This document shows positions 18,376 to 58,458 of a stretch of 64,000 nucleotides of DNA, in pieces. The stretch is from Eledone cirrhosa. Lineage: Eukaryota. The notes beneath the pieces are model-generated. The model was not told where the DNA came from. It was given only the letters and a program-made list of their open reading frames with translations, and made no database searches. The position numbers and the translations under genes were made by a program. The DNA lies in NCBI GenBank assembly GCA_964016885.1, contig OZ024746.1, forward strand, positions 25,110,001 through 25,174,000, in the 5' to 3' direction. Position 1 is the stretch's first letter; each line of letters starts with the position of its first letter.

Positions 18376-19466
18376 ATGGACTCACAGTCCCCGCATAAAC
18401 ACAAACGAGCCAAAACACAGCATTTTAATCGGAAGGATGGGATAAAAAAAGAGGACGATGAGGAAGTTCTGGCCGCCACGGCAGCAACAGCCCCGTGTTT
18501 TGTGTGTGGGGCACTGGCGGTAGAGCATTTTATTGACACTAAGTCGACAAACAATATAAATAAACCACCAACAGATCTTACATCCCAGGCGAGAAATATT
18601 TGTTCCGTATGTAGGGATTTCTACCGTCACAGTACCATAGGGGATGCACACCTGGATTATGTCTGTGTTACTCAGGGTCAGATTAACAGACGGATATCAT
18701 TGAGGAACTCGAGTTTATTGACTTCGTCGAAATCTCCAGTTTCTGATTTGTGTACAATTAAAGCAGATGCTGTGAATAAATGTCGTTCTTGTTGGTACCT
18801 CAAATGCATCTCTTTTGGACTGAATGAAATTCAGGAAGTTATAGATGTTAGCCAACCCGAATCAGACCAACCTCCGAACAACACCACCAACAATAACAAC
18901 AACAAGGGAGATCCTAGCGACGATACGTGTATAGGGACTTCAGTTCCCATCAAAAGCGATTCACAGTCGTCATCGGGAAAGGAGTCCAATAATTCCAATT
19001 CAACTGCCTCTTTAAATGTAAGTTCGAGTCCTAGTGTGGTTAACAAAAATAAACAAAAACAACGCCATCCACAAGATCAACCCATACGGTTAGACATTTC
19101 CGAAAATACAGCCATCTCTCTAACAAAACCGAAACAATCCACGGTTCAGAAGCAATTATTAGCATCCACCCGGATGGATAATTCCCAGTCTACTAAAACC
19201 TCAGGCAAAGGAAATGAGCGAACGATTCCCACAGTTGTATCATCCGAGCTAGCTTCTTCGCAACACGCACAAGGGAAATTGCTAAAGGTTTTAAGTCAGC
19301 CGCAAAAATCGGCGAAACAGTTAAAAGCAGTCGTTGGAACACAAGTGATAAAAAAAACTAGCAATGTTCAACGACAAACGAAAACGTCTGTTTCAAATCC
19401 GACGAAAAGTCCCGTTAAAGGAAGGGACACTAGTAGCAGTCAACTTTCTTCAAAATATTCACAAAA
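18376..19466 (+). CDS. Multi-DBD nuclear-receptor-finger gene, coding exon 1 (contains loop-expanded DBD1)
   Basis: ATG at 18376. ORF has CFVC...CSVC...CVTQ...C...CRSCWYLKC..GL. Donor GTAAGT at 19467, phase 2, matches the phase of the exon 2 acceptor. Confidence 0.8.
18496..18822 (+). other. DBD1 (degenerate NR zinc finger, insertions in both finger loops)
   Basis: All 8 Zn-ligand Cys plus the terminal KC..G are present, with long insertions; P-box CSVCRD. Confidence 0.65.
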
Positions 19467-19558
19467 GTAAGTCTTTACTTAACATTTGTACCTTGTACCT
19501 CTCTATAAACACACAGTCACACACACACATAAACACACACATATATATATATATATAT

Positions 19559-19620
<62 letters not shown>

Positions 19621-20055
19621 AGTCAACGAGTAAAAACAACACAGGAGAACAATACAGTACAATGTTCTATATTATTTGGACGTGTTTAGAATACAGTAGT
19701 ATTTAAAACAAGCAAGCATTAACTGAACGAGCACTCAATACTGGTGGATAGGGTGCAGAAATTTATTTTCCAAGTAGAAATCTTCAAAGTTTCAGCATAG
19801 TGGCTTCATCATACATATATTGAAGTGTACTTCTATAATCACACAGTCACACACACATGTATATATATACATGTGTGGTGTAAAGTGGTGTGTTTTATGC
19901 ATGAGCACTCAATACATTTGAGCAGAATATTGCCCCCTTTTCTTGAGAAAACAGAACTATATATATATATACACACACACACAGCTATCAAGAAATAAGA
20001 ATAATTTTTAAAAGCTCACATTTTTAGCAAAGTTGATGATGTGTGTATAGATCTT

Positions 20056-20099
<44 letters not shown>

Positions 20100-20523
20100 T
20101 AAACACAGGCAGATATGTACACACCCAAATATTTGTTTTTATACCAACAACCATAGCAGTAAACTAAAGGATGAAAGAAGTGTCAAGCCAACATGCTTGC
20201 CCGACCTGCTAAAAATAGCAGCCAAATTTCCCTTAAATCGTACCCTATTGTCACAAACAGGAAATGACATATTAGACAATGTTAATGATCACACATCCCT
20301 AAAATGACGGGATGGTTACGACTGGTTGGGGATAAACACCAACTAACAAAAATATATGCTTAGTTGCATTACTGAGTTAAGTTACTGATTTCGTCGAATA
20401 CCTGACCCGATCGTAGCTCAAAAATCTATGTTAATTCTCTTTAATCTTGAACTTCAATAACACTGATAAGTATATATACATACCCAATGCTTTGAGTAAA
20501 CAGAAACCGTGTGGAAACCTGTC

Positions 20524-20568
<45 letters not shown>

Positions 20569-20698
20569 TTCCTGATGGTTTCTAATGAGTGAGACGGTTC
20601 TGGTCCTGTAGAATCTCATCTATATTAAAACTTTTATACTCTGCTATGTATTGAGTACCTTACTTACTGTGGTTACCTCCGATTCAACCCGGAATAAC

Positions 20699-20768
<70 letters not shown>

Positions 20769-21136
20769 CCATGATGAGTTTACACACACTCTGATTGCTT
20801 AGTACTTATAGTGTATTTAGTGGGATTCAACAGAGCTGAACAGATGAGGCGGATCTTCGTCCCACATCGCCGCCTGATGGAACGCTAATCTATATCACAG
20901 CCAACATTCCCCAGATATCTGTGAACTGTTTCCTTCTGTAGCTAGATTATAGGCCACTTGAGGTATTTTGAAAGTAAAATTTTGTTTCAAGAGTTTTAAC
21001 TTGATGCAGTTAATCGACAACTACATAAGATATACATATATATAAAAAATTAAGATGACAGAAAGAAGTTCATACATAGTTTAATTCTTGCAATTGTATC
21101 GATGCAAAGCTTTTCTTCAAACACATAACTAGACAA

Positions 21137-21225
<89 letters not shown>

Positions 21226-23394
21226 ACAACAAAAATAAAAACAAATGTTTTGTATGCACTTATCCAGTCCACTTACATGTTTAAAGTAAATTCATATATA
21301 TACATAATTGACCGACTCAGCAATGCAGGCCCAAACAGAGTAGGGGAGCATTCTCTGGTGTGCAGGAGTCCATGTGTCTGCTGCCTCATGGATTCTGTGG
21401 ACAGAATGGAGAAAACATTGCTCCCAAGGATGGCAAGGGAGACATGCTAGAATAGCCATTCCAACTCATGGACCTCGCTCCTGCGGGCAGCCAACTCCGC
21501 CTCGATAGTTAACATAGCCGGCCTCATAACAAGCTTTTCCCCTTTGCCCAATCATCTGCATACCCCCTCACCACCCATTGTCTTTCATTTCTTTTATCCA
21601 TGTCTTTCTTAGCCGTCTAGCTTCCTCCTCATTCATTTCAACCACTCTGCTCATCCAGTCATTTTCATCCTTCCTCAACACATAACTTAACCATCTCAAT
21701 CCATTTCGCTTCAAAACATCCATTACTGGCTTTGTTCTCATTATATTCTACAGTTTATTGTTTGTCTTCCTCACTCTCTCTGAGGGATATTCCACTCATC
21801 CATTGGACCATTCTCATTTCCATTCTGTCCAGCTTTCTCTGCTTCTCCACATTCATCATCTCTGTCTCATTTCCATAAATCATGGCACTTCTCATACATA
21901 CATCATACAAACACTTTTCCTTTCAGTTTCAGTGGCACTCCCCTCCTCATTAGCATGCCACTCTGTTCCTGGATTTCTTCCATGCTCTGTTCATTTGAGC
22001 TACTGTTATCTAGTCTGATCCACCTTCTCCCTTTGAGTAACTGTTATCTGATCTGATTCACCTTCTCCATTCAGTATATTTCGTAGGTAAAAAAAACATT
22101 TTCACATTTTCCATCTTCACATCATTCCTAAAATCCAGCTCAACATCCTCTCCATCTGTAGTCACCCCACCCCCTTACACACTACATTTTTTATGTACTC
22201 ACTCAGTACATATCATCAATCTAATCAAATTCACCCTTCCTGCAGATAACTACCTTCCATTTGTTATATGTGATAAACACACAAAACATGCACTGAATTA
22301 AAGACTCATAATACATGTAGGCAGCAAATTGGCTGAGTTATTAGAATGTCGGATAGAAAGCTTTGAGGGTATTCATTTTGGCTCTCTACTCTGAGTTCAA
22401 ATCCCATTGCAGTCATCTTTACCTTTCATCCATTCAAGGTCTATAAAAAAAAGTATCAGTCTAGTACTGGGGTCAATTCTTCCTCTATATCCCTTTCTCA
22501 CTTCCATTTTCTCACTTTCTATCCATCTCTGGAAGAAATATCTGCTGTGTTCAGACTTGAAGAGGAAATACTCTCCACCCGGTTTTAAAATATCCTAGAA
22601 GTGCCATATGTCTGTACAGCACCCATATGGCTCCCTCAGGTGTTACGAGACCAGATAGTATATTTATAGAGGTAATACAATGATTGTTATTAATGGTGGC
22701 TGTTTACTTTGAAGTTTAACCTACATCATTGATTTATGAAAACTGTTTTCATAAGCTAATAACGTCAGCAAAATTTCCTAGTAAACAAACACTCATCATC
22801 CTCTTCATCCTTTAATATTTGTCTTCCCCGTTAGCAAGGGCTGGTTTGGTCTTCACAGACCAAGTCAGTACTGAAGCAGAGCCACTGACTTTTCAGGTTG
22901 GCTGGACAACCTACTTCTTACATACATTCACACACTCTACCTAGTGCATTTTATTGTGGCATCGGCACTAAGGAGGTTGTCATGTCTTTGACACAGCTAA
23001 AGAGTCCTCCTGTCTTTTTGTTTGGCAGGTTTTCTACAGCTGGACACCCTATTTAATGAGTAGACATTGATCAAACCGCTGGAGCACTTATTGTCGAAAC
23101 TGATTGGGGTCAATTTCCTTTATTCACTATATAGACATAAGTGTTTCAAGGCCAATATTTCCGCTAAAGTAAGGGCTAGTTTGTGGGCCCTATGACAGTC
23201 TTCATACTCATCATGGGGTAGTATTTTATGGCTTTCGACAACCTTTTAGTCACCTTTTACAATGTAGCTATTCTCAACCAGATACAAATAGTAAATAGAG
23301 TAAATAAATATTTGTATTTATGTATGTTTATGTGTATTTCAATGTTTGTATTCAGTTAGCTTTTGCTTAATTCATTTCTATTTATTTATTACAG

Positions 23395-26300
23395 GAAAAC
23401 AAGTCCTGTGGGCATTGTTCTAACTCCCGAGGAATGCGTATGTCAAGTATGTGGTGACACAGCTTCTACTATCCATTATGGAGTACTCACGTGTCCAGAC
23501 TGCAAGCTATTCTATCGACTAAGCATACAGGACAGCTTTGCTGATGGCTACTACTGCAAACAGAAAACCCATGAAATAACAAAGAGAAACAGAGGCAAAT
23601 GTGAATACTGTTGGTACAAGAAATGCTGTAGAGCAGGAATGTCGAGGGATAAACCAGAGATTGGTGAGGCTGTTACTGTGATAAAAGTCGAGAACAAACT
23701 ACAGCAAGCAAAAACTGAAAAAACGAATCCCTTACTGAAAAAAGCCTCAGTGACGAAAGACCTAAATAAACAGACAAGCAAGGCCCCACAGCAAACAACA
23801 GAGCCTCAGAAAGTACCTCCTCCGCCCAAAAAAGATCTCAATTTATGTAAAGTGTGTGAAGATCGGGCTTTTAAGAAACACTATGGCATCTTAGCCTGTC
23901 CAGAGTGTGAAGTTTTCTTTAAAATGAGTATCCTTGATGATTTCTACGAAGGCTATTTTTGCAGGATTAAAAAATGCAAGGTGAATCGTTTTTGTCGAAG
24001 TAACTGTGAATATTGTTGGTACCAGAAATGCCTGCTTAGCGGTATGCAGAAAGATGGTAGCCAACTGGAAGAAGATAACAGCAGTCGTAATGAAGTTGTT
24101 TCATTGACAACAACACAACAAACGTTAAAGCCGGTTTGTAGCAGCATTGAAATAAAAGATGAAGAAGAAAAAGAAACAGAAGCATCAGTAACGTTAAACA
24201 ATATCAAGAAATGTAGCAAAGATAGCAAGGACTGTGGGAAGATTATCAGTAGCAACAAGACCAATGACAACCTTAGCAGTAAAACTGCAAACAAGACCAA
24301 CAACAACCTTAGCAGTAAAACAGTCAAAAACAGCAACAACAACCACCTTAGCATTAAAACAGTCAAAAACAGTAACAACAACAATAATGTCAATACTAAA
24401 ATACTAAACAACAGCAACAACAACAAGAGACTTGTCACTTCAACAGAATCAAAATCCACTGTAACTTCTGTGAAAAAAAGAAAGCCTGAAAGTATAGATG
24501 AATGCCTAGCTAGTTCTTCTAGACATCAGACCAACAGTAACCAAATCCCTAACAAACGTCCTAAAGCAGTTGGTAGTTTAGTAAGTAACATTCAGAGTAG
24601 TGCTAGTAACTGCTCGAGTGCACAACTGAACTCATCTCTAAACAGGAGTACAACTAGTACTTCTGCTGTCTTGTCATCAACAGCTTCATTCCAGTCTTTT
24701 TCGTCTTCATCTCATTCGTTAACATCATCATCACTGCCATCATCATTATCGTCGTCATTATTACCATCATTGTCATCATCATCATCTGTTTTATCCTTAT
24801 CATTATCCTCCTCGTCATCATCATTCACATCACAGAAACCAACCAATGTTATACCAATGCCAACGTCAGTTTCACATACAATAGTTACGTCAACAACAGT
24901 CACATTTTCGACACCCACTACTATGACATCAAAAATTCAGCCCAAATTAATGGCAAAGAAAAGTGTGGCACCCGCTAAAAGGAAAGTCTTGGATGACACC
25001 ACCACCACTAAGAACAACAACAAAGACTGCATCAGGCTTAATTCTGGTGTTAGTGCACATAACACGACATGTAAATTAATATCAACCCACGAAAAAGTTG
25101 TAACGACTAAGGAAGATTTTGTGAAAAATACCAGTGTTAATTCTGACTACAGAACTGATAAAAACAGTCATAGCAGTAGTGGTAGTAGTAGTAGTGGTAA
25201 CAGTAGCAGACTAAAGAAACCTTCTGTTTCTATAGCTGTCAGCACCTGCATTAATAAACCTTATGATGTAATGGCAATGAAAAGTAGCAAATTGACTAGT
25301 TTGGTTGCTGTGTCGGACAGTCGTAAGAACGATGGCAACAGTGGTAAGTGTACATCTACTACTATTACTACCAAAGGATTCATCAATCCCTTCCATTCTA
25401 CACTAAACACAAACATCTGTACTGTATGCGGTGATCAGGCTTCTGTTGTGAACTACGGAGTACTAACCTGTCCAGATTGTCGCATATTTTTCCAGATGTG
25501 TGTACAAGATGGTTTTGCTGCTGGTTTGAGCTGTTCCAAAAAACAACGGAATTGCTCAATAACCAAACTAAACCGGGAGAGCTGTGAATTCTGTTGGTAT
25601 AAGAAATGCCTTGCTGTTGGAATGCAGACTGACCAAATACTGAAGATGACGCCAACCTGTGATCGTTTTACTTTCTCTTTGCCTATAACACCATTGTCAT
25701 CAACTCAATTAGTGACTACCACAAGTAATTCTACAAGCCCAACAGCAATCTGTTTGGTGAGCTCTTTAGAGCGAGCTAAAAATTCCAGAAATATAAAATA
25801 TTCTTCTGTGTTACCTCCACCCTTTCAAAATGAAGAATTATGTGTTGTTTGTAGCGCACCTTTTGCAGAGATTTATTCTGGTGCAAAGGTGTGTCCAGAA
25901 TGTAAGAACTTTTGTGAAGAAAGTGCAGATTCAAAAATATGTTCTAAGTATGTCTGCGAGCAGACACAAAGCTGTACCATTGCCAATAGTAATTTGCCAC
26001 CAAAGGATCGGTGCAGCTATTGTTGGCATCAGAAATGTGTACAATGTGATTTGCTCAGTAAAGAAACAAATATATCAAGAGATTCACCCAGTTTGGAGAA
26101 GCAGGAAAAGAAAGACCGAATTCCTGACCCTGTTTTGGATAATCTAGTTTTCCGAGAATCGGTGGATATATACAGTGCTGTGTTGGACAACATCCTTCAA
26201 GATAAAACAAGTCCATCTCACACAGACAGTGAAATTATTGAACAATACTTTGATGAAAATACCCCAGACAATCAAATTTGTGAACTACCAAGTTTGATGG

Positions 26301-29300
26301 AGAGTATGTTTGAATCTTTAACTAAATCTTCTGAAGAAATAGAATTGATGCAGAAGAAATTTGAACGACTAAAAATGGAGAAGGAACGTGTTTGTGCTTT
26401 AAAGAAACAAAATGAACAAAATCAACCACCTATCACTTTGCCTGGTGCCGTAACGACAGACTGTGCATCGAAAGTAACCAGGCGTGTACTCCTTAACAGT
26501 AATGACACCCAGGTGAAGGAAAGTGGTTTAGCAATAAAAGACAGCCATAATAAACCAACACCCGAAGCCATGATATACCCGCCCTCTTATTTGTCTTCTA
26601 AAAGTTCCAAAACTGATTCCCTGTCTGACAACTCAATTCAAAAGTGTGATTCATCCCTTCTTAGTTTGGATTGGGAAAGAAAAGCAAATGAGAGATGTAA
26701 CTATTCGGAGAAAGACAGTTTTACTTCAATTGCAATGAAGGATTGTTCAATGGTAAAAGTAACTAATGAAGTTCCACAGAATATTTTTGACAGCTCAGAT
26801 GACATAACACCCGTGTCTGAATCTGTGCCCTTCATACCCATACCAGCAGCTGGAGAAAAACAGGTGAAAAAAATAGTTTTCAGGTCTGTGTTAGATCGAT
26901 GTGAAGAGGAAGATATATCAGAAAACTTTTCATCAGATATTGAACGATGTCATTTGGAACACGGAGAGCGAGAAACTACTCACCAAAAGTTAAATGAGCT
27001 TCAATTGAAGAAGGACAATGTGGAAGAAAAGCTGCAAATGCTACAAAAGAACATTGAGAAAGAACGGAAAAAGCTCCTAACTCTTCAAAAAGAACGGAAA
27101 CGAGCAGCGAAAATTTGTAAGTCCCTGGAATCTTCTAATCCATTATCTTTGGATCCGAAAATGCCACAACTAGAACCTGAATCTGAAAATATATTGCGAC
27201 CATCAAATATTGATCTTGTTAAACAGAAAGAACTGGAAACCAATGATTTTTCTATGATTGAGGTCAGTAGCCCAGTTGTAACAGAAGAGACAGACTCTGA
27301 GAAATTATGTCGAGTATGTGGAGATAGAGCTCCTGGAGTTCTCTATGGAGTGTGGACATGTCTGAAATGTAGTGTGTTCTTCCGCCAGAGTCTAGACAAA
27401 CAGATTTCCAGCCAGTATACTTGCCGAGATGGCAACTGTTACATCGACAAAACTAACCGAGGGATCTGTAGATATTGTTGGTACCAGAAATGTTTGGTTG
27501 TTGGTATGTCGAAACAAGAAAAGAGAATTGTTCCAATCATATCCCCAGTGGCTTCTCCAAATACTGGTCAACAGGATCAAAGTAGAACTGGTATGTTCCA
27601 CGAAGACAATGACCAACATCAGATCAAAGAAACCGAGATGGAGATTATGCAGAATGTATTCCCAGGTGATAAAGGACCATTAGCAAAAGATCTTACAACT
27701 GAAATATGTGAAGAAATACATGAAGAGATTGGAAATGTGGAAGAGGAACTTTGTGATATGTCTGATTTCAAGACAAGATCCAAAGGTAATAACAACTGTT
27801 CGGAGACAATTTTAGAAATAAAAATGTCCCAAACATCTACAAGTGAATCAACAAACACATCTTCTTTGGTTCCAGAATCTTCAAACAACACAGCGTTTGT
27901 CAATAATAACAATCAGGTTACTGACTCAGGATGTTCTGTTGATTTGGCCGATTCATTTCCTCCTCAAAAAGCTAAATGTGATTCCAATAACTCTTCCCTC
28001 TCTGCTGTCACAGATACGAATATATCTAATGAAGATGTTACTACAGCAACAGGGCCAAAAGGTCAAAATGATGTCTCTGTTCAATATGTCAGCTACATGG
28101 ACAATGACACTTCTTTGAATTCAAACTCTGAAAGTATGCCAGTAGTAACCTCAACTGATGTCACCACAGAAATACCAGTTGCAAACACCAAAACAACTTT
28201 GTCAGATTCTGACCAGACTTTGGATATACAAAAAGCACCAACGTTCCGGAGAATCTTACCTGAAAGCCTTAGTACATCAGTTGATCCATCTGTTGTCACA
28301 GAGGTCATTCCGGAGCCTTTATGGAATTCTGTTGATACTGAAATTGTCCAAAAGAAATCTGGTGATTCTGTCGATGATAGTGAAGGTAGTGCTGATAGAG
28401 TGACACCTGTAGATACCCTTGATTCAACTGGAACGATACATTGTGAGGAAACAGTTGATAATACCATTCCAGAGACTTTGAGAAATTTTACTGATAAATC
28501 TGTTATTACAGAAATTATTCCAAGTTCTTCAAGAAATTCTGTAAATTCTATGATTCGAGACTCCAATTGTGACTCTCCTGAGGCCCCTGTTGGCAAAGAA
28601 ATTATACCAGGAGCACTGTCTCAATTTATTGATAAACAGTCTCTTAATCCTATGGTACTGCCAGAACCTTCTGAGACCACTTCTGAATTTGCTGGGAACT
28701 CTGATAATGAAAGTTCTGTGTCAGATGGTAACCAGATGAAAGAAGCTAACGCTGACTACTCCATGTCAACCAGCCAAAACATTTCTTATAGATCTCGAAT
28801 GTTACCTGAAAAACCTTCTTTCACTATATTAAAAAGAACAACCTTTATGGCAAAGCAGAAAACCACCAGATCTGTTGATATGCCTTCTTTGTCTTTCCGT
28901 TACATGGTTAAACGTTGTTCTCCAAAACATATCACTAACCAAATGCAGCGCCGGATCAAGAAGTCAGTTCAAATGATTGGAAAAGCTAAGCTGAAAACTC
29001 CATTTTCAAAAAATACACCCCCAACCTCTTCACATCATGCTGCACTAAGAGAATATGAGTTTGATGATGATGATAGTGATGATGAACATTTACAACATTC
29101 TTCATATAAAGCACACAGTAGTGTGAAAACATCTAGAAAGATGATGAAGAAAAAAGCCAATTTAAAGACAGTATTGAAAAGGAATTTAGCATCTACCCCT
29201 GTGTGTAAACAACATCAACACCAGAAGAACACTTCAAAGTTTATTTCTACTGTTACCAAAACTGCTCAAAAAATTCCCTCCAAAAATAAGGGTTCATTGA

Positions 29301-32151
29301 AGGATACAAATTTAAAGATGGCACTGACAAAACCACTGCGTAAACGAGGCCGTCCACGGAAGATACAACCAACACTGGCCAACACTGAAATAGCAGTATC
29401 AAGTGAACTATCTCTGAACAATTCTGTTTGTGAAGAAGATAGAGAACAGCTCTTGAGTCCACCAGAGAACACCACTGAAATTTTATCTGTCATGCCTTCT
29501 GTTAATACTGGAGTCACTGAATTCAGTAAAAGAAACAAAATTAAGAATAAAGAAGACAGTGTGGATAACAATAGCTTGTGTAATGTCTGCGGTGATGTGT
29601 CACATGGAAAACATTATGGTATTGTGTCTTGCTCTAGCTGTCGGTCCTTCTTTTCACACATTACCGATTCCAAAACTAGCAAGAAATTTGATGTATGTAA
29701 TAAGTCATGTGTAATCAACAGTGAGACACGTCGATTCTGTCGGTACTGTTGGCTTCAGAAGTGTCTAGAGGCAGGAATGGTGAGAGGTTCCAGCAGAAGA
29801 GGTCGTCCACCAAAAGTTCGACTACAGACTAACCAAGCTGAAACTGTAACAAGCAATAACAATGAACTTTCCAGCGACCAAACTGAGACAAATAATTCAG
29901 AAACAACACATCCAGTACTCCATAAGGAGTCGGCCCAGAATGAAAGTATTGAGAATAATGACAATAATAATGACCTGTTTATTAACAACAATGATATCAG
30001 TACTGAAAATGATCAAGCTGATAGTATGGATGTGTCATCTGATGTGATGAAAGACAGGGACAATGATGATGATGAGGATGATGAGGAGGAGGAGGAGGAA
30101 GGGGAAATGAATGTGAAAGAAAGGCCTTCAGGAAGTTCAACACAAGCTGCAATATCAGATGCTGAGGAATCTAATGTAACAAACTTAGAAGAAATGTCTA
30201 ACAGTGGTTTAATTTCTCAAGAGAAGATACCATGTCAGATAAATAGAGAGGAGTCAACAGCCATTGATCAATCATCTATAGTTTGTATTAATTTAGATAG
30301 TAATTTAAATAACAGTAACATAAGAACTTCCACTGATTCAGAATCAATGGCTGCTGAAAAAGACTCTGATTCACCTGTAATTATTGAAGGTGTTCTAGAG
30401 CAGAGTGACAACGATAAAAATGATGGTGATAATGGTCAGAATCCTAGTTCAGCTAGCAGTGAAGAATGTTTCTGTAAAGTATGTGGTGATTTGGCCTCAG
30501 GAATTCACTTTGGTGTAGAAACTTGCTGGTCATGTACTATCTTCTTTAAGCAGAGTACCGACTCACGGACAACCAAAAAATACAAGTGTCATAACAAAAA
30601 CTGTTGTGTCACACCTGATAACTATGAACGTTGTTCTTATTGTTGGTTCCAAAAGTGTTTGCTTGTTGGTATGTCGAAGATGTTAATTCCTAGAAATCAA
30701 AGCCAAAAAGGAAAAGGTCAGTTCTTGGAGAACTATGTTTCAAACACAAACCAAAGCATCTCTTCAGGAACCCACCAGGAAAAGAGTGATAAACAATTGC
30801 CTATAGTTGTGACAACTTCAAACATAGTGAGTACATCACACAACACTTTGGTAACAGCCACACCACTGACATCTGTCGCAGCCACCATCAGTAGTACAAA
30901 CACTACAGTTTCTGATGCAACTTGTACAACATATGTTATGTCTCCTTCTAATAGAGAAGTTACTGCAGTTAGTACATTTAATCCTAGAAGTCAAACTGTC
31001 TCAGTAATTACCACAACACCATTAAAGACCAATGCAAACATTAATACTTCCATCACACTTGATACAGTTTCTTTGCAACCAAAATTATCGAGTAATAAAC
31101 AACCTACAGATTCTGTAGACACTGTTCAAAATAATCTTCAAACTTCACCTGTGAAATCTGTGTTAGTTGCTCCCAAGACTAGCTTAAATCAGATGCAGAC
31201 ACCAACTCATACTGAACAGATGTGCAGTATTTGTGATGACACTGCAATTGGTGTTCGCTATGGTGTGCAGACATGTCGTAATTGTTTGTGTTTCTTTCGA
31301 ACAGTACTAAATGGGGGAACCCCAATTGAAAAGGACCATGCAAATGGTAACTGTTATATTAATAAAGCCAATACTAACCGGTGTCGATTCTGTTGGTTCC
31401 AGAAATGTCTTTCAGTTGGAATGAGTGACAAGGTACAGATGAAAAAACAGCAAGGATTAATGGCACCAAGTAGACTGCCAACATCTGGGCAGGATTGTAA
31501 TACCAACAGTCCCAATATATGTGACCAAACCGATCCTGTATCAAGTTCTAGTAGTAGCAGTCCAGACATTATTACCACACTTCCAGCTAATGGTCTGTCT
31601 CTGACAACATCTTCACAAGTACAAATGTTACCAATTACATCCAGTCAATCAGGGTCGACCGGTACTACAACATCTCAGCCAAAGGATCTGAGTCCAAACA
31701 TGAGGACAACAACAAATGAATCCTCATCTGTGACCAGCCATAGTAAAGATGTTGTTAAGTTATGTAAAGTATGTGGTGATGTCTCCTTTGTGTCTCATTA
31801 TGGCATTGCATCTTGTTTAAATTGCAGTGTCTTTTTCCGTCGCAGTTTGGACAAACGATTGCACCGCACATATAAATGTCTCAACAAAGACTGTTTAATT
31901 AGTCGTGCCAGTCGCAGTCGCTGTTATTACTGCTGGTTCCAGAAGTGTTTGGGAGTCGGCATGTCCTACAAGGTTAAGCGTAAAATGCGCCATCAGAAAG
32001 AGAAATCAGTAGATCCAGTGGAAGTATCTCAGTCACCTAAGCACCTATCAACTCCTAATCAGAATGCTGCCAACCAAAATTCCAAGAACAACAGCAGTCA
32101 AAACAATACTCAGTTAATCTCAAGTCACAATAAAAGTCTTGTGACTGATAG
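23395..32151 (+). CDS. Multi-DBD gene, giant exon 2 (8,757 nt; DBD2-DBD10, two AT-hooks, coiled coils, S/T/N-rich linkers)
   Basis: Stop-free 2,930-codon ORF. Acceptor tttattacAG at 23393-94 and donor GTAAGT at 32152, both phase 2. Nine C4-C4 NR zinc-finger units. Confidence 0.93.
23441..24046 (+). other. DBD2 (23441-23641) and DBD3 (23846-24046)
   Basis: P-boxes CPDCKL and CPECEV. DBD2 has His in place of the second D-box Cys (CKQKTH). Confidence 0.9.
25418..26053 (+). other. DBD4 (25418-25624) and DBD5 (25841-26053)
   Basis: P-boxes CPDCRI and CPECKN. Confidence 0.88.
27308..27508 (+). other. DBD6
   Basis: CRVCGDRAPGVLYGVWTCLKCSVFFRQS...CRYCWYQKCLVVGM. Confidence 0.9.
29339..29362 (+). 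other. AT-hook motif RKRGRPRK
   Basis: Canonical RGRP core with basic flanks. Confidence 0.8.
29579..29815 (+). other. DBD7 followed by AT-hook RRGRPPK
   Basis: P-box CSSCRS; short C-x3-C D-box (CNKSC). Confidence 0.88.
30473..31963 (+). other. DBD8 (30473-30673), DBD9 (31223-31423), DBD10 (31763-31963)
   Basis: P-boxes CWSCTI, CRNCLC and CLNCSV. DBD9 has His in place of the first D-box Cys (DHANGNC). Confidence 0.9.
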
Positions 32152-33231
32152 GTAAGTAATAATCTAACATTTTTTCACATTTTCCTTGTGGAGATAGATC
32201 TATCTTTTCTGACTCACTGATTATGTTGTTAGAGCTCACATCAATGTAGGTTTCTTGGGTATTTTAATGATAGGGGCATCAATCCTATTATGTTTTGGTT
32301 GTTATCACTCACACTGCTGTAGGTTTAGGTAATCATTCAGAAGGTTGTATCTGAAAAGAAGTTTCTTGGATATCTTAATGATCAGGGCTCCACCTCCATC
32401 CCACTAGTTCTATCATTGTTACAACTGACACCTATGTAGGTTTAGCTAACCTCCTATGATGCATCTCATAGGAGGTTTCTTTGATGTTTTAATGATAGTA
32501 ATTTAACATATGGTTTTTATATAAAATTATGTTGGAAGATTATAATTTAAATTGGAATCCTTTAAAAAGAGTGGTTGTGTTTCATAGAACAAGAGGTGGT
32601 TGTGGTTAGGTTGGTATCAAAAGAGGTAAGTGACAAAAGATATGATTAATTCTGATTGAAAAGATTTTAATTTGGTGACACGAAAAAAATGAACAATCAG
32701 TCCACTCTGTAAGGTGGTTGTGTTGGTGACACAAGAAAAAAGCACCCAGTTCACTCTGTATTGGTCTCCAAGCCTAACTTATCTCATAATGTGACAACCT
32801 GTCTAACCCATGCAAGCATGGAAAAATAGACATTAAATGATGATGTGTTAGTATAGTTGAATATACATTATTTTCATTACTATTTTGATTGTGGTTGAAA
32901 AGGTTTTTGTATCGCTATGTTAGTTTCATTGTCATCATCATGTATTTTCCATGCTTGTATGGGTTAGATGGGCTGTCATGTTATGAGGCTAGATAGATCA
33001 GACGATTACATCTTGTTCATACGATCTGTTTTTGGTCTGGTTACCTACAATTGGATGCCCTTCCTAATAGAGTGGACTATGTGCTTTTTCTCACGGCTTT
33101 ACCACCCTACCTTGCAGGATGGGTTGAGTTCTTTTATTGTGGCACCAGCTCTTTGATATATATCTTTTTATTGTTATTTTGATTGTAGTTGGAAAGATTT
33201 GAATAAATATTTTTCTCATTTGTATTTCTAG

Positions 33232-33589
33232 TGAGCATGATCAGCTGTCTCGTAGATTCTCTCGACGTAGTGGCAACATACTCTGTAAAGTGTGTGGTGA
33301 CGAGGCCTCTACAGTACATGCAGGGGTACTCACATGTCACCCTTGTCGATCTTTCTTTAAACGAAGTGTAAAGAACAGCATCAACCGGAAGTATTCCTGT
33401 GATGATAAAAACTGCTCTATAACTAAGAACAACAAGAAAAGCTGTGATTACTGCCGCTATCGAAAATGTCTGGCTCTTGGAATGGCCAAAAATACTATGA
33501 AGCACAACAGTCAACCTTTAAAAGATAAAACAGATAGCCAAAAGATGGTTGAGTCTGCTAGCAATGTACAGATTGAATCTGTTAAGAGG
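33232..33589 (+). CDS. Multi-DBD gene exon 3 (DBD11)
   Basis: Acceptor tttctAG (33230-31, phase 2). CKVCGDEASTVHAGVLTCHPCRSFFKRS...CDYCRYRKCLALGM. Donor GTAATG at 33590, phase 0. Confidence 0.88.
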
Positions 33590-33652
33590 GTAATGTATAT
33601 TTTGGTACTCCTTATATATTTTAACAGTTATATAGAACATTATTTTGCAGAG

Positions 33653-33828
33653 GGCAGTATCGGTAGAGGGTCGGACGCCATGCTTTGCAGCAACGAGTTT
33701 CGGCCCTTTATAGTCTGAGTTCAAATCCCGCCGAGGTTAAATTTGCCTTTCATCCTTATGGGGTCGATAAAATAAAGTACCAGTAATGTACTGGGATAAT
33801 TGCTGGCCTTGTGCCAAAAGTAGAAATA
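33653..33828 (+). mobile_element. SINE family A (more copies ~34482-34662, 45290-45498, 50222-50405)
   Basis: TSD attattttgcagag; near-identical to the other copies. Confidence 0.85.
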
Positions 33829-34809
33829 ATTATTTTGCAGAGTTGTTAGAACATAGGGAAAAATGCCTATGTGAACCCAGTTTCGAATAGATACACTGTA
33901 TCTCTATGTTATAAGAGGCAACTAAAAGGGTTTGCATCAGGAAAGACAGTGTGGAAAAATGGACATAAAAACAATGATTGGGATGATCTATCAACATGGA
34001 GGGTATGTGAAGGTTTGACAAGACTGAAGAGTCCTCTCATCCTTTTTAGGCATGGTTTCTAGGTGCTCTTGGTTTCTGGGTGCTCATGGTTTCTGGGTGC
34101 TCTTCAGCAAAACTGAAGAGTCTCCACCCTTTTTCACATGGTTTCTAAGACTGGATGCCCCTCCTAACCCAAACAACTTAACATAGTGTAATGGATGCAT
34201 TTTATCGTAGCACCAATGCTAGTGTTACATTGTGTACTACAAGAGTAGCCTTTTTGATAGTTAGCTACCTGAAACTGCTGCTTGTTCTGATACAAAACTG
34301 GTCATTTTAAAGTGTTGATATTTCATCATAATTTTATGTAATGGAAAAGTTAATTACTTTATGAAAGTCCTCCGAATGTTTCATTATTTTCAGAATTATC
34401 TAGTCAAAACCTGTTGCCACACTGCCGGTAGAATACACACACACACAAACAGCCACAAAAAATAACTATATGTATTCATCAGCGGCAGTATTGGTAGAGG
34501 GTCGGACGCCATGCTTTGACGCATAGAGTTACGGCCCTTGCCATTCTGAGTTCAAATCCCGCCGAGGTTAACTTTGCCTTTCATCCTTACAGGGTCGATA
34601 AAATAAAGTACCAGTAATACACTGGGTAATTGCTGGCCTTGTGCCTAACGTAGAAACAATTATCATTTCCATGTTAGCATGGGTTAGACGGGTTGTCCTA
34701 TTTGAGGCAAGTAAGGTCAGGTGACCATGTCTTGCTCATACAGAACTGTTTCTATGGCTGGATGCCCTTCCTAACGCCAAGTGGTACTTCCATGCTACCT
34801 TCTTTTCAG

Positions 34810-35235
34810 TATTAGTGAGAGCGAGTACTTCATGGACACACATCTCTCCAATGATATCACAGTTTTCCCTGACACATTGTCTCGCAATCCTGAACACTTC
34901 ATACCTTAGGTCCTCACATTGCCGAACATGCTTAAATTTTTTAGTTTCTGCTTCTCTTACAAGGTATACTTGTCATCTAGCTTCTCTCCTAGCCTCCTGG
35001 TCATGTTCTCTACTTCCCCCATCCCGCCATTCTTTCCATGCCTTAACTGTCTCCTCTATCTTACTGTTCTATCACCAAGTCACTCTCCTTCTCTCTAGAG
35101 ACCTGCTCCAACCACAGATTTCGTTTGTTGCCTTCAGTAGGCTCCTCTATATTGTATGTCCCTATTTGCTCTTCCTTACTGTCAAAAGCCTCGTGCAACA
35201 TACCTCTAAATTAGTGAAATTCTTTTTTTAAAGTC
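34810..35235 (-). pseudogene. Degraded RTE-like LINE ORF fragment (other remnants ~21600-22010 on -, ~50950-51330 on +)
   Basis: Reverse complement translates to ..ATNEICGWS..AWKEW..GGSRE..EVFRIARQ..DIIGEMCV, with stops. Confidence 0.55.
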
Positions 35236-35589
35236 TATCATGATCACTTTCATTCTCACATTATAAACACCCATCTCTCTTTCACACACACTCTCTCTCT
35301 CTTGACAACAACTTTTCACTCCCCCTCTTTTCACCTACATATATGTTGTGACAGACAGGCAGAGGGAGAAACAGGTTCTCTTTTATAATATAGATTGAAA
35401 TAAGAGTCCTCACTACTCTATTTAACATGTATAAAACTTATTTTTTTCAGCTCTTGTTTTCTGACCATGTAAAATGGTTGTGTACAGGTGTAACTAAGTT
35501 TGAAGTTGTTTGTAACCTTTTAATAAATTTAAAAATTGTAATTTTATTAATAATGTTCTAATCTGTGGTATTAATCTTTATTTTTATAG

Positions 35590-35918
35590 AACCATTGCAA
35601 AGTCTGCGGCTTAGAAGCATCTGGGATTCATTATGGTGTTTTGACCTGTGGTAACTGTCGAGTGTTTTTCTTCAAGAGCTGTGAACAACAGAGTTTTAAA
35701 AACTATCAGTGTTCTTTGAAAAATTGTAACATATATAGTAATGGTCAAGTGAAGTGCTCCTATTGCCACTACCAAAAGTGTTTGAGGGTTGGTATGTCAA
35801 GAGATTGCATTAAACGAGGAAGACCACGCAAAGTAGATGAGAATATGTCCAAGGAAATGCCAGAACTGAAGAAACAGAAAACTAACAAGAATAACACTAC
35901 TAATAAACCTAAAAATAA
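35590..35918 (+). CDS. Multi-DBD gene exon 4 (DBD12 + AT-hook)
   Basis: Acceptor ttttatAG, phase 0. NHCKVCGLEASGIHYGVLTCGNC...QKCLRVGMSRDCIKRGRPRK. Donor GTAAGT at 35919, phase 2. Confidence 0.88.
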
Positions 35919-36058
35919 GTAAGTTTTATTTACTTTATTTCACTGACAATTTCAAAGTCTAACACAAAATATTAGTTTAGAAAATAAAGTACCAGTAATG
36001 CACTGGGTAATTGCTAGCCTTGTGCCTAAAGTAGAAACAATTATAATTTGTAAGTGAT

Positions 36059-36350
36059 ATAGCTGTCTCAGTGGCCTAGTTGGAGGAATCATAGACCGTG
36101 GTGATCTTGGTCTGAAGTTCGATCCTGGTCGGGTGTAGTGTTCCCGGTAAAACCTTTACAGGGCGGTGAATTGGCAGTATCGGTAGAGGGTCGGACGCCA
36201 TGCTTTGACGCATTGAGTTACGGCCCTTGCCATTCTGAGTTCAAATCCCGCCGAGGTTAACTTTGCCTTTCATCCTTACGGGGTAGATAAAATAAAGTAC
36301 CAGTAATACACTGGGTAATTACTGGCCTTGTGCCAAAAGTAGAAACAATT
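36059..36350 (+). mobile_element. Composite SINE: extra tRNA-like head fused to a family A body
   Basis: 16-bp TSD ataatttgtaagtgat encloses both parts; A-box tggcctagttgg and B-box gttcgatcc in the head. Confidence 0.7.
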
Positions 36351-36526
36351 ATAATTTGTAAGTGATGAATTGGCAGAATCATTTAAGCGTTGGATTAAAA
36401 TACCTGTGTGGCTCTCTGTGTTCTGAATTCAAATCTCACTGACATCAGCCATTGCCTTTCATCCTTTTAAGGTCAATGAATAAAATACCATTCCAATACT
36501 GGGGTTGGTTCTCTCACCTCTCAACT

Positions 36527-36569
<43 letters not shown>

Positions 36570-36920
36570 CATTATCGTTTAACGTCCATCTTCCACGCTT
36601 GCATGGATATATATACATTTAAACAACAACAGAAGGCCGGACTGGAAAATTTGCTTACTAAATTTAATTTCGTGAAAACACTATTCATATTTTGATGGCC
36701 CAGCTTTATCATCCGACTGGAGATAGAAAAAAATAGAAGATAGAAAATTCGATTTGGGGACAGCCTGCCAATATGGTGTTATATTGATATTAGATAGTCC
36801 CTGGTGACCGTTTGCTATCGATTTGGGAAATTTGAACTCCAACCGTTAAGCGCCAGAAATACCACCATGTATTTAGCATTATGTGAAGGCAGGCGACTCT
36901 AAGCTTCTTTAAGTTATCTC

Positions 36921-36960
<40 letters not shown>

Positions 36961-36963
<3 letters not shown>

Positions 36964-37395
36964 GTATAAAATTCCCTTGGGAGCTTTATAAGTATTGAAA
37001 TTTCCGTTGGAAACAGAAAAGGTCATAGAAGTGAAGAGTGCTCTATGTAAGTATCAGAGCAAAATCAATACTTATAAAGCTCCCAAGGGAATTTTATACA
37101 TTAAATTTTGCTCTGATACTTACATAGAGCACTCTTCACTTCTATGACCTTTTCTGTTTCCAACGGAAATTTCAATATTTATAAAGCTCCCAAGGGAATT
37201 TTATACATTAAATTTTGCTCTGATACTTACATAGAGCACTCTTCACTTCTATGACCTTTTCTGTTTCCAACGGAAATTTCAATACTTATAAAGCTCCCAA
37301 GGGAATTTTATACATTAAATTTTGCTCTGATACTTACATAGAGCACTCTTCACTTCTATGACCTTTTCTGTTTCCAACGGAAATTTCAATACTTA
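36961..37395. repeat. One inverted plus three tandem copies of a 107-bp unit between (TA)n tracts
   Basis: Units start at 37066, 37173 and 37280; 36961-37065 is a permuted reverse complement. Confidence 0.85.
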
Positions 37396-37685
37396 TATAT
37401 ATATATATGAAAAAATGGGGAGAAGAATACTGCAGGTTGCACATGGATAACATGTTATAAAATGAGTCCCTCATCAGTGATTTGCCGACGATCATAGATA
37501 TTTCATTGCATTAAAAATCACAATCATAGATATTTCATTGCATTATATCATCATTTCATCATTTCATTTTACGTCCACTTTTCCCTGCTTGCAAGGGTGG
37601 GACTGTGTGTGTCTGATGGTAGCTATGATGCTTCCATAGGCGGTATGCCAGTTGAGCACTCTATGTTCTTACAGAGCAGAGTGTG

Positions 37686-38300
37686 ATATAATATAAAACG
37701 AAAAATCAGTGATGCATCTGAACTAAATTTATTGTGTGTTATTGTTTCGCTGGCAGACAGCTCGAGACACGATTATTGTGTGGATCTGTCTGATTCTGAA
37801 TCTGCAGGTTCGTCGGACACTTCTAATAATTTCGGAATCAATTTTCTCAGGTGAGAAAATTTGATCCGACAAACCTGCAGATCCAGAATCAGACAGATCC
37901 ACACAATGAGAAAATTTGATCCGAAATTATTAGAAGTGTCCGACGAACCTGCAGATCCAGAATCAGACAGATCCACACAATGATCGTGTCTCGAGCTGTC
38001 TGCTGGCGAAACAATTGTAACACACAATAAATTGAGTTCAGATGCATCACTGATTTTTCGTTTTATATTATATATATATATAAAAAGAAAATTTTCGCTC
38101 TACACGGCTGAATACAATAAATGTAATCTGAGTTTTTCGAATATTAATAATAACATTCGATTCGTTTGCAATTATGCAAACAAGAGCAAGAATGAAGAGT
38201 TCATTCTACTGACATGGCTATAAAATTGAGGCTTGTTTGCATAATTGCAAACGAATTGAATGTTATTATTAATATTCGAAAAACTCAGATTACATTTATA
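37686..38300. repeat. Two adjacent fold-back inverted repeats
   Basis: Arms of about 160 bp (37686-38075) and about 65 bp (38118-38298). Confidence 0.85.
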
Positions 38301-38657
38301 TATATATATATATAGAAATAGCCGTCGAAACGGCTTGAGCTCTGCCGTCGGGGACATACTTTTTCTTATATATATATAAATCATCGTCATCATTTAACAT
38401 CCAAGGGTTGGACGGGTTCACATAGATCAAGTCAGTACTGAAGCATGGCTACTGACATCCCAGACAGGCCAAGGGGTCTGTATCCCACTTATATATATAC
38501 TCAATTATTTCCAAAATGATTTGAAACATATAGGCAGTGTTTTTCATTAGAAGTATGGATTTCATTTAAAACATGTGGAAAAGAGATATATTTATATTGA
38601 GTTTCCTCATAATTATTGTATTCTGTTTATATAATCTTCTTTGTTCTTTTTTTTTAG

Positions 38658-38960
38658 CAACTCAGCTGAAAACTCACAGTTGGTGAAGGAAAAACAAAAG
38701 GCTCCTTGTGTTGTTTGTTCTGATGTGTCCAGTGAGATTTACTGTGGGCTGTGGGTTTGCATTAGCTGTCGTAATTTCTTCCAGTACAGTATAGATAATG
38801 AGCGCAACGAGGGCTACAGATGCAAGTACAATAATCACTGCATTGTGAACAAAACTAGTCGGGTGTTATGTCATTACTGCCGCTTCAAAAAATGTCTAAT
38901 TGTTGGCATGATGAAAGAACAAGCTTACCAAGAATACAACAAACGGAAATGTTCTGAAAA
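38658..38960 (+). CDS. Multi-DBD gene exon 5 (DBD13)
   Basis: Acceptor (T)nAG, phase 2. PCVVCSD...CISCRNFF...CHYCRFKKCLIVGM. Donor GTAAGT at 38961, phase 2. Confidence 0.88.
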
Positions 38961-40005
38961 GTAAGTTGTTTAGCCTCTTTGATACCAAGCTGCTTTAAAC
39001 CACTTTTGGTTCTTTAATACAAAACTGTCATGAAGGGTTTCATAATTTAATCATAATCACCAGCTTAATACCGAGAAAGTTATATTACTAAATCACTCCA
39101 AATTCTTGATTATATTCAAAATTATTGGAAAATTATAGGCAGTGTATTTCATTAGAAATATGGTTATGAAAGGGTTATGTGTTTCAATGCTGTATTGTAC
39201 AATAGTATATATCTATGGTTTTTTTTTCCAACATTGTGTGTATGTGTGTATATATATATATACACACACAGATGTAAACCCCTTTTCAATGCAATACTAC
39301 AGAATATATCTATAGATTTTAGCCAACACTATATATAAAATGAATGTCATGTGACAGTCATTTCCAACAAAGCAGAGATGAGGTGATGATAATCATAACC
39401 AGGACTGACTTAGTCAATCTCAGTTGTCCTTAAGCTTCTCAAGGGGCTTCTGTCATCTAGGTCTTCCTGGGTCAGAGGAAAGACAATGGGACTTCTTTAT
39501 ATTTGTGGGTTTGTGTGGTTACCATTGTCTCCTTGTTGAGTACATCCACCCATGTAGACAAATGTTGTTGTTTTTTTGTCATGTTAGGGTGTCCACCTTT
39601 TTCTCACTCTTTATTTTATATTCGTTCTTTGTTTTCAATTTGTTGTTCTATATTAGTATGGAATTAATTAAAGAGCAGGTTTTAGAAGACTCCTCACTTG
39701 CATCAATGTACTGAAAATCCTCCTAGTGCCAGTGTCACAATAAAATACACCCTGTATACTCTGTAAAGTGGTTGGTGATAGGAAAAGCATCCATCTATAG
39801 AAAGCATGTCAAAACTGCAATATATGTAAGCTAAACATGGTCCCCAGCCTGTCTCAGATTACAGTAGCTTTAACTAAGACCTAACTTCATCTGTGATGAC
39901 CCATCTAGCCCATGCCAGCATAATAAAATGAATGTTAAATGATGATGAATGTAAGTATATATGAAAATGATTATGTATACTTTTAATTTAATTTTAATTT
40001 TTCAG

Positions 40006-40462
40006 TTCAACTGTCAACAATCATGAAAGGATAAAGCTGGCATGTAACCCCCGGCACTTTCCATGTAAAGTTTGTGGAGATCTTGCATCTGGTATACATT
40101 ATGGCCACTTCATTTGCGAAGGCTGTAAAGGGTTCTATCAACGGAGCATACGCAAGAAAATGGTTTATTTGTGCATCAGCAAAAATTGTATCATCAATAA
40201 GTTTACAAGGACACGCTGTGCCTATTGCAGGCTGCAAAAATGTTTGACTCTTGGCATGTCAAAAGAAGCTTGTAGGAAGGGTCGGCGAACAAAGGAAAAG
40301 CAAATGAGATTGATGAACCAACCCCGTGAGGTAGTTAATATATATGAGGAATATAGGAATCCAAACCCTACAGCTAAAGAGTGGATCAATACAGCACCAC
40401 GAAAAGAGCCATCAAGAGAACCAGTGGAATATATTGAAGACGCTGATCAGCCTAAAATGTAA
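40006..40462 (+). CDS. Multi-DBD gene exon 6 (DBD14, canonical CEGCKG P-box); ends either at TAA 40460-62 or at a splice donor at 40459
   Basis: Acceptor ttttcAG, phase 2. [75 protein letters not shown]. Confidence 0.88.
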
Positions 40463-49420: not shown

Positions 49421-49500
49421 ATGGGATCAATATTGAGTACTACAGTGTTTACTTCGGACCTCGAAGATGTTGATGCCGTCATACACGATGGAGGAGAGAC
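49421..49500 (+). CDS. SCLY: Selenocysteine lyase exon 1 (MGSILSTTVFTSDLEDVDAVIHDGGET)
   Basis: Strong start context acaATGG. Donor GTAAGT at 49501 in phase 2, as exon 2 requires. Confidence 0.65.
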
Positions 49501-54563: not shown

Positions 54564-54688
54564 AATCTACATGGATTACAATGCTACAACACCACATGCC
54601 CCTGAAGTAATTGATGTTATTGCACACACGCTACAGAAAAAATGGTTTAACCCAAGTAGTGCCTACTTTACAGGAACTAAAGAATATG
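54564..54688 (+). CDS. SCLY: SCLY exon 2
   Basis: IYMDYNATTPHAPEV...WFNPSS, the class-V PLP enzyme N-terminal motif; AG/GT boundaries. Confidence 0.92.
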
Positions 54689-55069
54689 GTAAGGTCCTTC
54701 AGTTTGATTTTTTATAAAATTTTAATCTTTCAACAATGAAATTGATAATGTGTGATGATGGATCCTTTGTTGGTTTTTACGATGGCTGTTCAGTTGTTTG
54801 ATCTATCTTGAGTGATCCTTGCAATGTTTAAGGGGATTCTCTCACTCAAGTTTCCCTGGGTCAGAAGTAGGGCAAGGGTTAATATGAAAGGAGATTAATC
54901 ATATCTAGGACTGACATAAGAAGCCACCTTAGGTGGTCCTCAGTGTTCAAGGGGCTTCTGCCACTCAGATCTCCTTGGGACAGGTAGGGCAAGTGTTAAT
55001 ATGAAATAAGGATAATTCTATCCAGCACTGATAAAAGCCACCTTAGGTGGTCCTCTTTCTGGTGAGACC

Positions 55070-55376
55070 ACTACAGGAGAGGTATTTAGCTAAGAGTAAG
55101 CCATTGTACCTAGCATTTGTAGATCTAGAGAAAGGCTTTGATAGGGTACCACACTCTATAATCTGGTGGGTACTTAGGAAGCTAGGTGTAGACAAATAGC
55201 TTGTGGGGGCCATGCAGGCCATGTATAGAGGAGGAACCAGCAGGGATAGTTGGAAATTAGTACAGTGATGAATTTGAAGTGCAGGTGGGAGTCCACCAAA
55301 GATCAGTCCTTGGTCCACTTGTATTTATCATTGTACTTCAGACAGATGCTCCATGGAGCTCCTTTATACTGATGAT
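55070..55376 (+). pseudogene. RTE-type LINE reverse transcriptase fragment
   Basis: LYLAFVDLEKGFDRVP..IWWVLRKLGV, GVHQ.SVL.P, ELLYTDD, interrupted by stops and frameshifts. Confidence 0.8.
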
Positions 55377-55801
55377 AGGAAGAGCTTCCAGCCATGGAGT
55401 GTTTGCCAAGTAAACAAAGGGTCGGGAGAACCCTTCAGTCGTGTTATGAACGTGACAGCCTCCCTAGTCTTGGTGACCTACATGATAAATGCACCCAGTA
55501 AAGTGGTGATAAGAAGGGCATCAAGCTGTAGAAAACTTACCAGACAAAGGGTTGGGAGAACCCTCCAGTCATGTCAAAGGCATTACAACCTCTCCTGAGA
55601 ACTCAATGGAACGTAAGACTGTATATAAGCAAGACAGGTCCCTGGCTTGCTTGGGAGATCAGTGGCTCTGCTTCAGTACAGACTTGGTATATATAGATCT
55701 GTACAACCCTTGCTAGTAGGGAAAGCAAACGTTAAAATGACAATGATGATGATGATACATAAAATGATTTAACGATGTTGTTCTCTCTTTCCTGTTTCTA
55801 G

Positions 55802-55873
55802 TTAACCCTTCTCGGGAGTCCATTGAAGATGCACGGGAGCAAGTTGCTGATATGATTGGTTCTTCTCCAAAAG
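55802..55873 (+). CDS. SCLY: SCLY exon 3
   Basis: SRESIEDAREQVADMIGSSPK; phase 1-1. Confidence 0.9.
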
Positions 55874-56822: not shown

Positions 56823-56854
<32 letters not shown>

Positions 56855-57690: not shown

Positions 57691-57719
57691 ATATTGTCTT
57701 CACATCAGGAGGAACTGAG
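57691..57719 (+). CDS. SCLY: SCLY exon 4 (29-nt micro-exon)
   Basis: DIVFTSGGTE motif; strong pyrimidine tract with cAG, donor GTAATC. Confidence 0.9.
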
Positions 57720-57791
57720 GTAATCAATTTATTAATTTAATTAATTTCTTGAGGAAAATGAAATAATTAATTAAATTTCAAAATATTCTTA

Positions 57792-57976
57792 CGAGGGTCA
57801 GCTGAAAAGTTCATAGGATGACCAAGACACTCTCATGAGCTTAATTTTTTTACATAGACCCTAGAAAGAAACAATGTAGTTATTAATAAGAAGAATTGAA
57901 ATTAATGCATGCAGGATTTCACATCACTAGCATCATTCCTTCACAGTCAACCTATGAACTTTTCAGCCAACCCTTG
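57792..57976. mobile_element. Tc1/mariner-type MITE (other copies 53297-53485, 61213-61388; partial at ~1445 and ~44320)
   Basis: TA|cgagggtcagctgaaaagttcatagg ... cctatgaacttttcagccaacccttg|TA. Confidence 0.75.

Positions 57977-58229: not shown

Positions 58230-58267
<38 letters not shown>

Positions 58268-58426: not shown

Positions 58427-58458
<32 letters not shown>

Follow-up and report, generated by a model that had tools for sequence, protein, structure and literature searches.

Nuclear receptors (NRs) have been described with one or two DNA-binding domains (DBDs) (e.g., PMC10497141). Receptors of the second kind, known as 2DBD-NRs, hold two tandem DBDs together with an LBD (ligand-binding domain), and are present in gastropods and bivalves as two to four genes; the main text of Wu and LoVerde (2023, PMC10497141) lists molluscan 2DBD-NRs for bivalves and gastropods only, and mentions neither octopus nor cephalopods. 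The gene presented here lies in a 64,000-nucleotide stretch of the Eledone cirrhosa genome (contig OZ024746.1, positions 25,110,001-25,174,000 of the forward strand), hereafter the window, to which all positions refer. It encodes 14 NR-type DBDs in a single chain, lacks an LBD, and is likely, from its exon phases and orthologs, to be spliced in frame onto a selenocysteine lyase. In DBD1-10, the arginine of the second zinc finger is replaced by tryptophan, and the change in contact residues likely stops ordinary DNA reading by these domains, probably leaving classical DNA reading to DBD14 only. A conserved, LBD-less, lyase-fused protein with 14 DBDs would constitute a new architecture, hidden so far in databases under the labels "selenocysteine lyase-like" or "uncharacterized". 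No published description of the gene was found in the literature searched, which included PMC11589774 and PMC12513265 and few subscription papers.

The array shares with 2DBD-NRs the tandem NR DBDs, the differing P-boxes with an EGCKG-type box in the last one, and KxGRP-like tails; differing P-boxes are also reported for 2DBD-NRC (PMC10497141). It departs from them in its number of DBDs (14 rather than 2), its lack of an LBD, its C-terminal lyase, and a spacer between DBD13 and DBD14 of 28-41 residues versus 20-27. Members of that family combine two DBDs and an LBD with a first P-box of the EACKK, LPCKS, or EACKS type, while here the P-box of DBD13 is a different one, the P-P module is not EACKK-EGCKG, and DBD14 fits ROR-like profiles equally well or better. 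Still, the profile of the first DBD of 2DBD-NRA is the best one for DBD13 in 3/3 orthologs and also for DBD5, and for 0/20 of the ordinary DBDs of this genome, in which no separate 2DBD-NR gene was found. In trees of 69-70 columns, the nearest outside rows of DBD13 are first DBDs of 2DBD-NRA, without support, and those of DBD14 are ROR-like, the best PDB match of DBD14 being RAR. Monophyly of the array was not rejected by the approximately unbiased (AU) test (p=0.54, with 38 of 106 rows left out). An origin from a 2DBD-NR-like pair is offered as a lead only.

Receptors of the NR0A or knirps type have an NR DBD without an LBD. They resemble the array in this respect, but hold one canonical DBD, instead of 14 (13 of them non-canonical) plus an enzyme domain. 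The nuclear hormone receptors (NHRs) of C. elegans, with 95 unique recognition helices in ~270 genes, show that altered P-boxes can bind diverse motifs, although the P-box predicts the motif imperfectly (Narasimhan 2015, PMC4434323). In both systems, P-boxes vary widely while the fold is retained, there across separate genes and here along one chain. LBD-less, zf-C4-only arrays of 3-6 DBDs with differing P-boxes are found in the mite Dinothrombium, in C. brenneri, and in other records (P0018, P0019, P0020, P0022, P0024, P0025, P0045, P0088, P0089). These arrays have fewer copies, keep the finger-2 Arg in 41/45 rows (9 of them duplicates), and show no lyase and no sign of orthology. Among the searched proteins, differing P-boxes within an array are thus recurrent, whereas neither the Trp class nor a fusion to the lyase appeared outside this cephalopod gene. 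KRAB-C2H2 proteins are tandem zinc-finger arrays with variable specificity positions. The present case is a single gene with long unstructured spacers, P-boxes that are largely stable among orthologs, and no KRAB domain.

In a six-frame translation, the + strand shows the starts of 13 regular NR zinc fingers, plus a degenerate fourteenth in an upstream frame. A model built on GT/AG boundaries joins them in six exons, which make up 3,763 codons with no stop. These exons, and those of the lyase, are as follows:

18376..19466, + strand: exon 1, with ATG at 18376; degenerate DBD1 at 18496-18807, with two long insertions; P-box CSVCRD at 18601-18618
23395..32151, + strand: exon 2, 8,757 bases open; DBD2-10, starting at 23441, 23846, 25418, 25841, 27308, 29579, 30473, 31223, and 31763; P-boxes starting at 23492 (CPDCKL), 23897 (CPECEV), 25469 (CPDCRI), 25892 (CPECKN), 27359 (CLKCSV), 29630 (CSSCRS), 30524 (CWSCTI), 31274 (CRNCLC), and 31814 (CLNCSV)
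33232..33589, + strand: exon 3; DBD11 at 33284-33469, P-box CHPCRS at 33335-33352
35590..35918, + strand: exon 4; DBD12 at 35596-35781, P-box CGNCRV at 35647-35664, followed by an RGRP motif
38658..38960, + strand: exon 5; DBD13 at 38707-38895, P-box CISCRN at 38758-38775
40006..40458, + strand: exon 6; DBD14 at 40064-40243, P-box CEGCKG at 40115-40132, phase-2 GTAAGT donor at its end
49421..49500, + strand: own first coding exon of the selenocysteine lyase, with a phase-2 donor; likely an alternative to the DBD array
54564..63240, + strand: lyase exons 2 onward, located by tblastn, with a phase-2 acceptor at 54564

The array extends from the start of DBD1 at 18496 to the last Cys of DBD14, which ends at 40243, with spacers of 41-695 residues between domains. 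Pfam zf-C4 (PF00105) recognizes 9+1+1+1+1 stretches in exons 2-6, corresponding to DBD2-14. DBD1, at 19.3 bits, misses the threshold of 21.1 bits, and its first finger has 31 residues instead of the usual 13; the N terminus of exon 1 aligns with Octopus P0002, P0003, and P0021. Within the 3.0-Gb genome, the window belongs to contig C6, and this is the sole array, with no paralogous one elsewhere, among 58 zf-C4 matches (a lower bound). Three DNA runs from one sample, possibly that of the assembly itself, differ in exon 2 by four substitutions, of which three are synonymous and one affects a linker, as well as by a single 3-base insertion. The P-boxes are free of variants in these runs, by which an assembly error as their source was ruled out.

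The donor at 40458 and the first exon of the lyase are both in phase 2, and both are compatible with the acceptor at 54564. The fusion is annotated in P0001 (O. vulgaris), P0003 (O. sinensis), and P0017 (Argonauta). A fourth record, the Logan protein P0168, encompasses in frame the tail of DBD12, both DBD13 and DBD14, and a complete lyase, as 685 amino acids on a contig of 2,578 bases; this contig is most likely a spliced transcript, because the same stretch covers more than 35 kb in E. cirrhosa. Across these four records, the lyase part is 64-96% alike. The preliminary description overlooked this splice. The lyase gene (SCLY, PF00266) has intact exons and its own first exon, which aligns weakly with residues 1-24 of O. 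bimaculoides P0005 (50%, E 0.064), and differs by the alternative 3,763-residue N terminus of NR DBDs; it ends ~8 kb past the window. The fused orthologs contain the class V aminotransferase domain PF00266, and the window exons hold the pyridoxal phosphate (PLP) lysine motif and the catalytic-Cys motif. An LBD downstream of DBD14 was considered and rejected: no PF00104 was found on the contig (among 27 matches) or in P0003, P0017, and P0168, and tblastn with 15 C-terminal LBD queries gave no match in the window or its flanks (20 kb upstream and 30 kb downstream).

As proposed in the preliminary description, all 14 P-boxes differ and only the last, of the NR1 type, is canonical; each six-letter string occurs once, in the order given, in the spliced model. 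All 16 full DBDs of ordinary NRs in this genome have P-boxes of the form E/D-G/S/A-C-K/R, which argues against chance as the source of the differences. DBD2-14 follow the C-X2-C-X13-C-X2-C pattern and the second C4 finger, with exceptions in DBD2 (sixth ligand His), DBD9 (fifth ligand His), and DBD7 (fifth ligand displaced by one). A shortened D-box of four residues is found in nine DBDs, including DBD14, and one of five residues in DBD5 and DBD13. Structures were predicted for two of the 14 domains. DBD2 gave a predicted local distance difference test score (pLDDT) of 95.4, with a template modelling (TM) score of 0.90 and a root-mean-square deviation of 0.8 to the ROR-gamma DBD, in agreement with the proposal that the recognition helix has diversified under a kept NR fold. 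DBD1 reached a pLDDT of 67, with both helices present.

The claim that zinc ligands and scaffold are largely kept holds for the fold residues, with F30, K66, and C67 in 14/14 DBDs and F31 in 13/14. It does not extend to the few ligands that are not Cys or to the DNA-contacting part, which is lost. In ER-type numbering, the contacts scored were E25, K28, K/R32, R33, R56, and R63. Across the 14 DBDs, E25 is found in 1, K28 in 9, R33 in 3 (the helix Arg being lost in 11), and R63 in 3. The 237 distinct canonical-P-box DBDs retrieved by search, a set whose construction fixes E25 and K28 and which contains an excess of ROR and 2DBD rows, have R33 in 230 rows and R63 in 235. That R63 and R33 are fully conserved among this genome's 16-20 ordinary DBDs is not evidence, since R63 and partly R33 were included in the pattern used to extract them. 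DBD14 keeps five of the six contacts (all six in three orthologs), DBD11 also five, and the remaining DBDs one to three, versus five or six in 232/237 canonical rows (two of the six by construction); the array as a whole therefore lacks the canonical set of base and phosphate contacts.

The finger-2 Arg site (position 63) is Trp in 27/27 rows of DBD1-10 from five sources, a residue seen there in only 2/237 canonical rows. The equivalent site of human NR2E3 is R104: with the first Cys set at 47, the five disease positions G56, R76, G88, R97, and R104 all match the letters of a PNR-type protein retrieved by search. The R104W mutation abolishes DNA binding (PMC2757917; PMC2773741); in the first of these papers it also raised the homodimer signal to 173%, and residue 104 points inward in a model of the protein. 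That Trp, a residue with a single codon, is kept in ten copies across lineages suggests that it was selected for a new role and is not a product of decay.

Orthologs are found in Octopus, Argonauta, and Sepia. Full-length ones are P0001/P0002 from O. vulgaris and P0003 from O. sinensis (4,182 amino acids, with all 14 domains in identical order), and fragments include P0021 from O. bimaculoides (DBD1-3), P0017 from Argonauta (DBD11-14), P0052 from Sepia (DBD1-2), and P0168. An additional fragment, the ENA protein P0006, contains DBD2, DBD3, one extra domain, and DBD4, its DBD2 being 87% like that of Sepia. The extra DBD of this decapodiform-like record (residues 386-456, between DBD3 and DBD4) is absent in octopods, and indicates that copy number varies. 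A metagenome scan for ortholog DNA reduced 87 pattern matches to one locus, an ordinary NR fragment. The presence of orthologs in octopus and cuttlefish implies that the gene predates the octopod-decapodiform split, ~270-300 million years ago. In a tree of 106 rows and 69 columns, every numbered DBD pairs with its ortholog wherever one was included (DBD2, 3, 11, 13, and 14 starred, 4 and 12 less supported), which suggests that the copies diverged early and were then kept.

Starting from the observed sequence, exon phases, orthologs, conservation pattern, and loss of contact residues, the explanation to which we lean, with modest confidence, is an old and fixed divergence, in which DBD14 is still a classical reader and DBD1-10 have left classical DNA reading. 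Internal duplication, possibly of a 2DBD-NR-like pair represented by DBD13-14, would have produced the copies before octopods and decapodiforms separated. The change from Arg to Trp in finger 2 may have released the P-boxes from AGGTCA reading, allowing them to diverge and later become fixed as new surfaces, so that DBD1-10 would have turned early into non-classical interaction modules, subsequently kept by selection. Anchoring on DNA would fall to DBD14 and the RGRP motifs, and the binding of protein partners to the Trp-type domains and the linkers' conserved coiled-coil islands, and the lyase might replace the lost LBD as the dimerization module, with DBD11-13 as an intermediate, faster-changing class. 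Selenocysteine lyase is a homodimer. The array offers a natural set of 13 altered recognition helices that share a fold, with an Arg/Trp switch already in place, for studying how DNA reading by an NR DBD is changed or lost, and it hints that selenium metabolism and chromatin may be connected in cephalopods.

Several observations weigh against this explanation. The NR2E3 data concern one mutation in another protein. Net charge is +3 to +11 in most DBDs (-1 in DBD5; canonical mean 8.9), and H18 (10/14), Y19 (10/14), R56/K (10/14), and K66 are also retained, making non-canonical DNA or RNA binding by the array domains possible. Position 32 of DBD14 is Gln in the window and Arg in three orthologs. 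P-box positions (41/48 identical) show no extra conservation over free surface positions (155/180) and hence no sign of special selection, and there is more than one candidate parent subfamily, with 2DBD-NRA for DBD13 and ROR-like or RAR for DBD14. Moreover, the span from DBD1 to the lyase is known from gene models alone, with no single transcript among the records, and one O. vulgaris model (P0002) stops after DBD12.

The alternative that survives best, although rather unlikely, is an old and fixed modular DNA code, where each DBD reads its own non-AGGTCA half-site on composite or multiple targets. P-boxes kept per position across species, an intact fold with mostly basic domains, the diverse motifs bound by worm NHRs with altered P-boxes, and the differing P-boxes of the unrelated 3-6-DBD arrays would all agree with such a code. 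However, those arrays keep the finger-2 Arg that DBD1-10 have replaced by Trp, the helix Arg is gone in 11/14 domains, spacers of 41-695 residues set no register, and the P-box-motif link is imperfect even in worms (PMC4434323); the KRAB-like modular code initially suggested for this locus is doubtful on the same grounds. Unlikely, too, is a coleoid-specific receptor whose LBD was swapped for the selenocysteine lyase, serving in dimerization and selenium sensing, with 13 extra DBDs as a bank of position-specific modules for interaction or DNA reading, the last three of them still diversifying under selection.

Some NR DBDs bind RNA. Binding of the Trp-type domains to RNA or structured nucleic acid, rather than to proteins or B-DNA half-sites, would agree with the retained basic surface and with a new aromatic residue in all DBD1-10 copies, but is distinctly improbable, given that the net charge of DBD2, 4, 5, and 9 is low in some orthologs (0 to +3) and that the NR2E3 model has residue 104 pointing inward (PMC2757917).

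A KRAB-like arms race still running against transposons or other shifting targets, as suggested at first, is very improbable and at most plausible for DBD11-13. The comparisons bearing on it are identity counts at the protein level against orthologs, ~20 tests in all. Between the window and O. sinensis, the non-Cys P-box positions of all 14 DBDs are identical in 47/56 cases, other DBD positions in 698/810 (p=0.69), Cys in 132/133, and aligned linkers in 1720/2627. The P-boxes of DBD1-13 (43/52) exceed these linkers (p=0.011), and the neutral drift that would have undermined the preliminary description is not seen. P-boxes of DBD2-10 are 32/36 identical to Octopus. Against P0006, those of DBD2-4 score 8/12, other positions 97/165, and one aligned linker 19/53; DBD3 has an identical P-box there, and DBD2-3 together reach 7/8. 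The DBD14 P-box is invariant in 4/4 rows. Overall, P-boxes are neither neutral nor fast, and faster evolution of specificity positions, as in KRAB zinc fingers, is confined to DBD11-13, where, in a post hoc comparison with Argonauta, P-boxes are identical at 3/12 positions, fewer than the other DBD positions (106/164, p=0.011) and the free positions (30/45, p=0.019), with linkers at 51/109. The first P-box position also differs from Octopus in 3/3 of DBD11-13 and 1/9 of DBD2-10, and the extra DBD of P0006 would fit as well. Nevertheless, relaxed selection explains the change in DBD11-13 equally well, diversifying selection being possible; this is a single-locus gene with the same domain order in the window and O. 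sinensis, and no KRAB-like repressor domain was identified.

Decaying repeats or a gene-prediction artefact, with neutral P-box drift and a lyase joined by mistaken read-through, is scarcely credible and for the array largely refuted: the degenerate DBD1, the separate first exon of the lyase, and P-box columns that vary as much among paralogs as the free surface ones do (0.11-0.18 vs mean 0.29, p=0.25) are outweighed by the 8.7-kb open exon, the near-identical Cys, the P-box identity above that of linkers, and the fusion junction in four records.

Outside the DBDs, linker islands at ~26080-26400, 26980-27100, and 28240-28720 are 85-100% identical to Octopus, and comprise two coiled-coil-like stretches and a region of repeated VITE/VVTE-I-I-P-like motifs; exon 2 also has acidic islands. 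The first two islands have no Pfam or Atlas match, with the ESM Atlas giving no usable match for linker 26060-27250. Three AT-hook-like RGRP motifs lie at ~29345 and 29800 (exon 2) and 35815 (after DBD12), two of them kept in O. sinensis and the third in P0168. Elsewhere in the genome, four ordinary receptors (L016-L019, three on contig C5 and one on C20) share a CESCKA P-box and the same intron position, and are presumably an NR1J-type expansion. Repeats in the window include TA microsatellites in long tracts, 7.5 copies of a 48-base tandem repeat, and 3.1 copies (99%) of a 107-base repeat, at 6991-9419, 12158-12519, and 37065-37397, and the introns hold many copies of a high-copy element resembling a short interspersed nuclear element (SINE).

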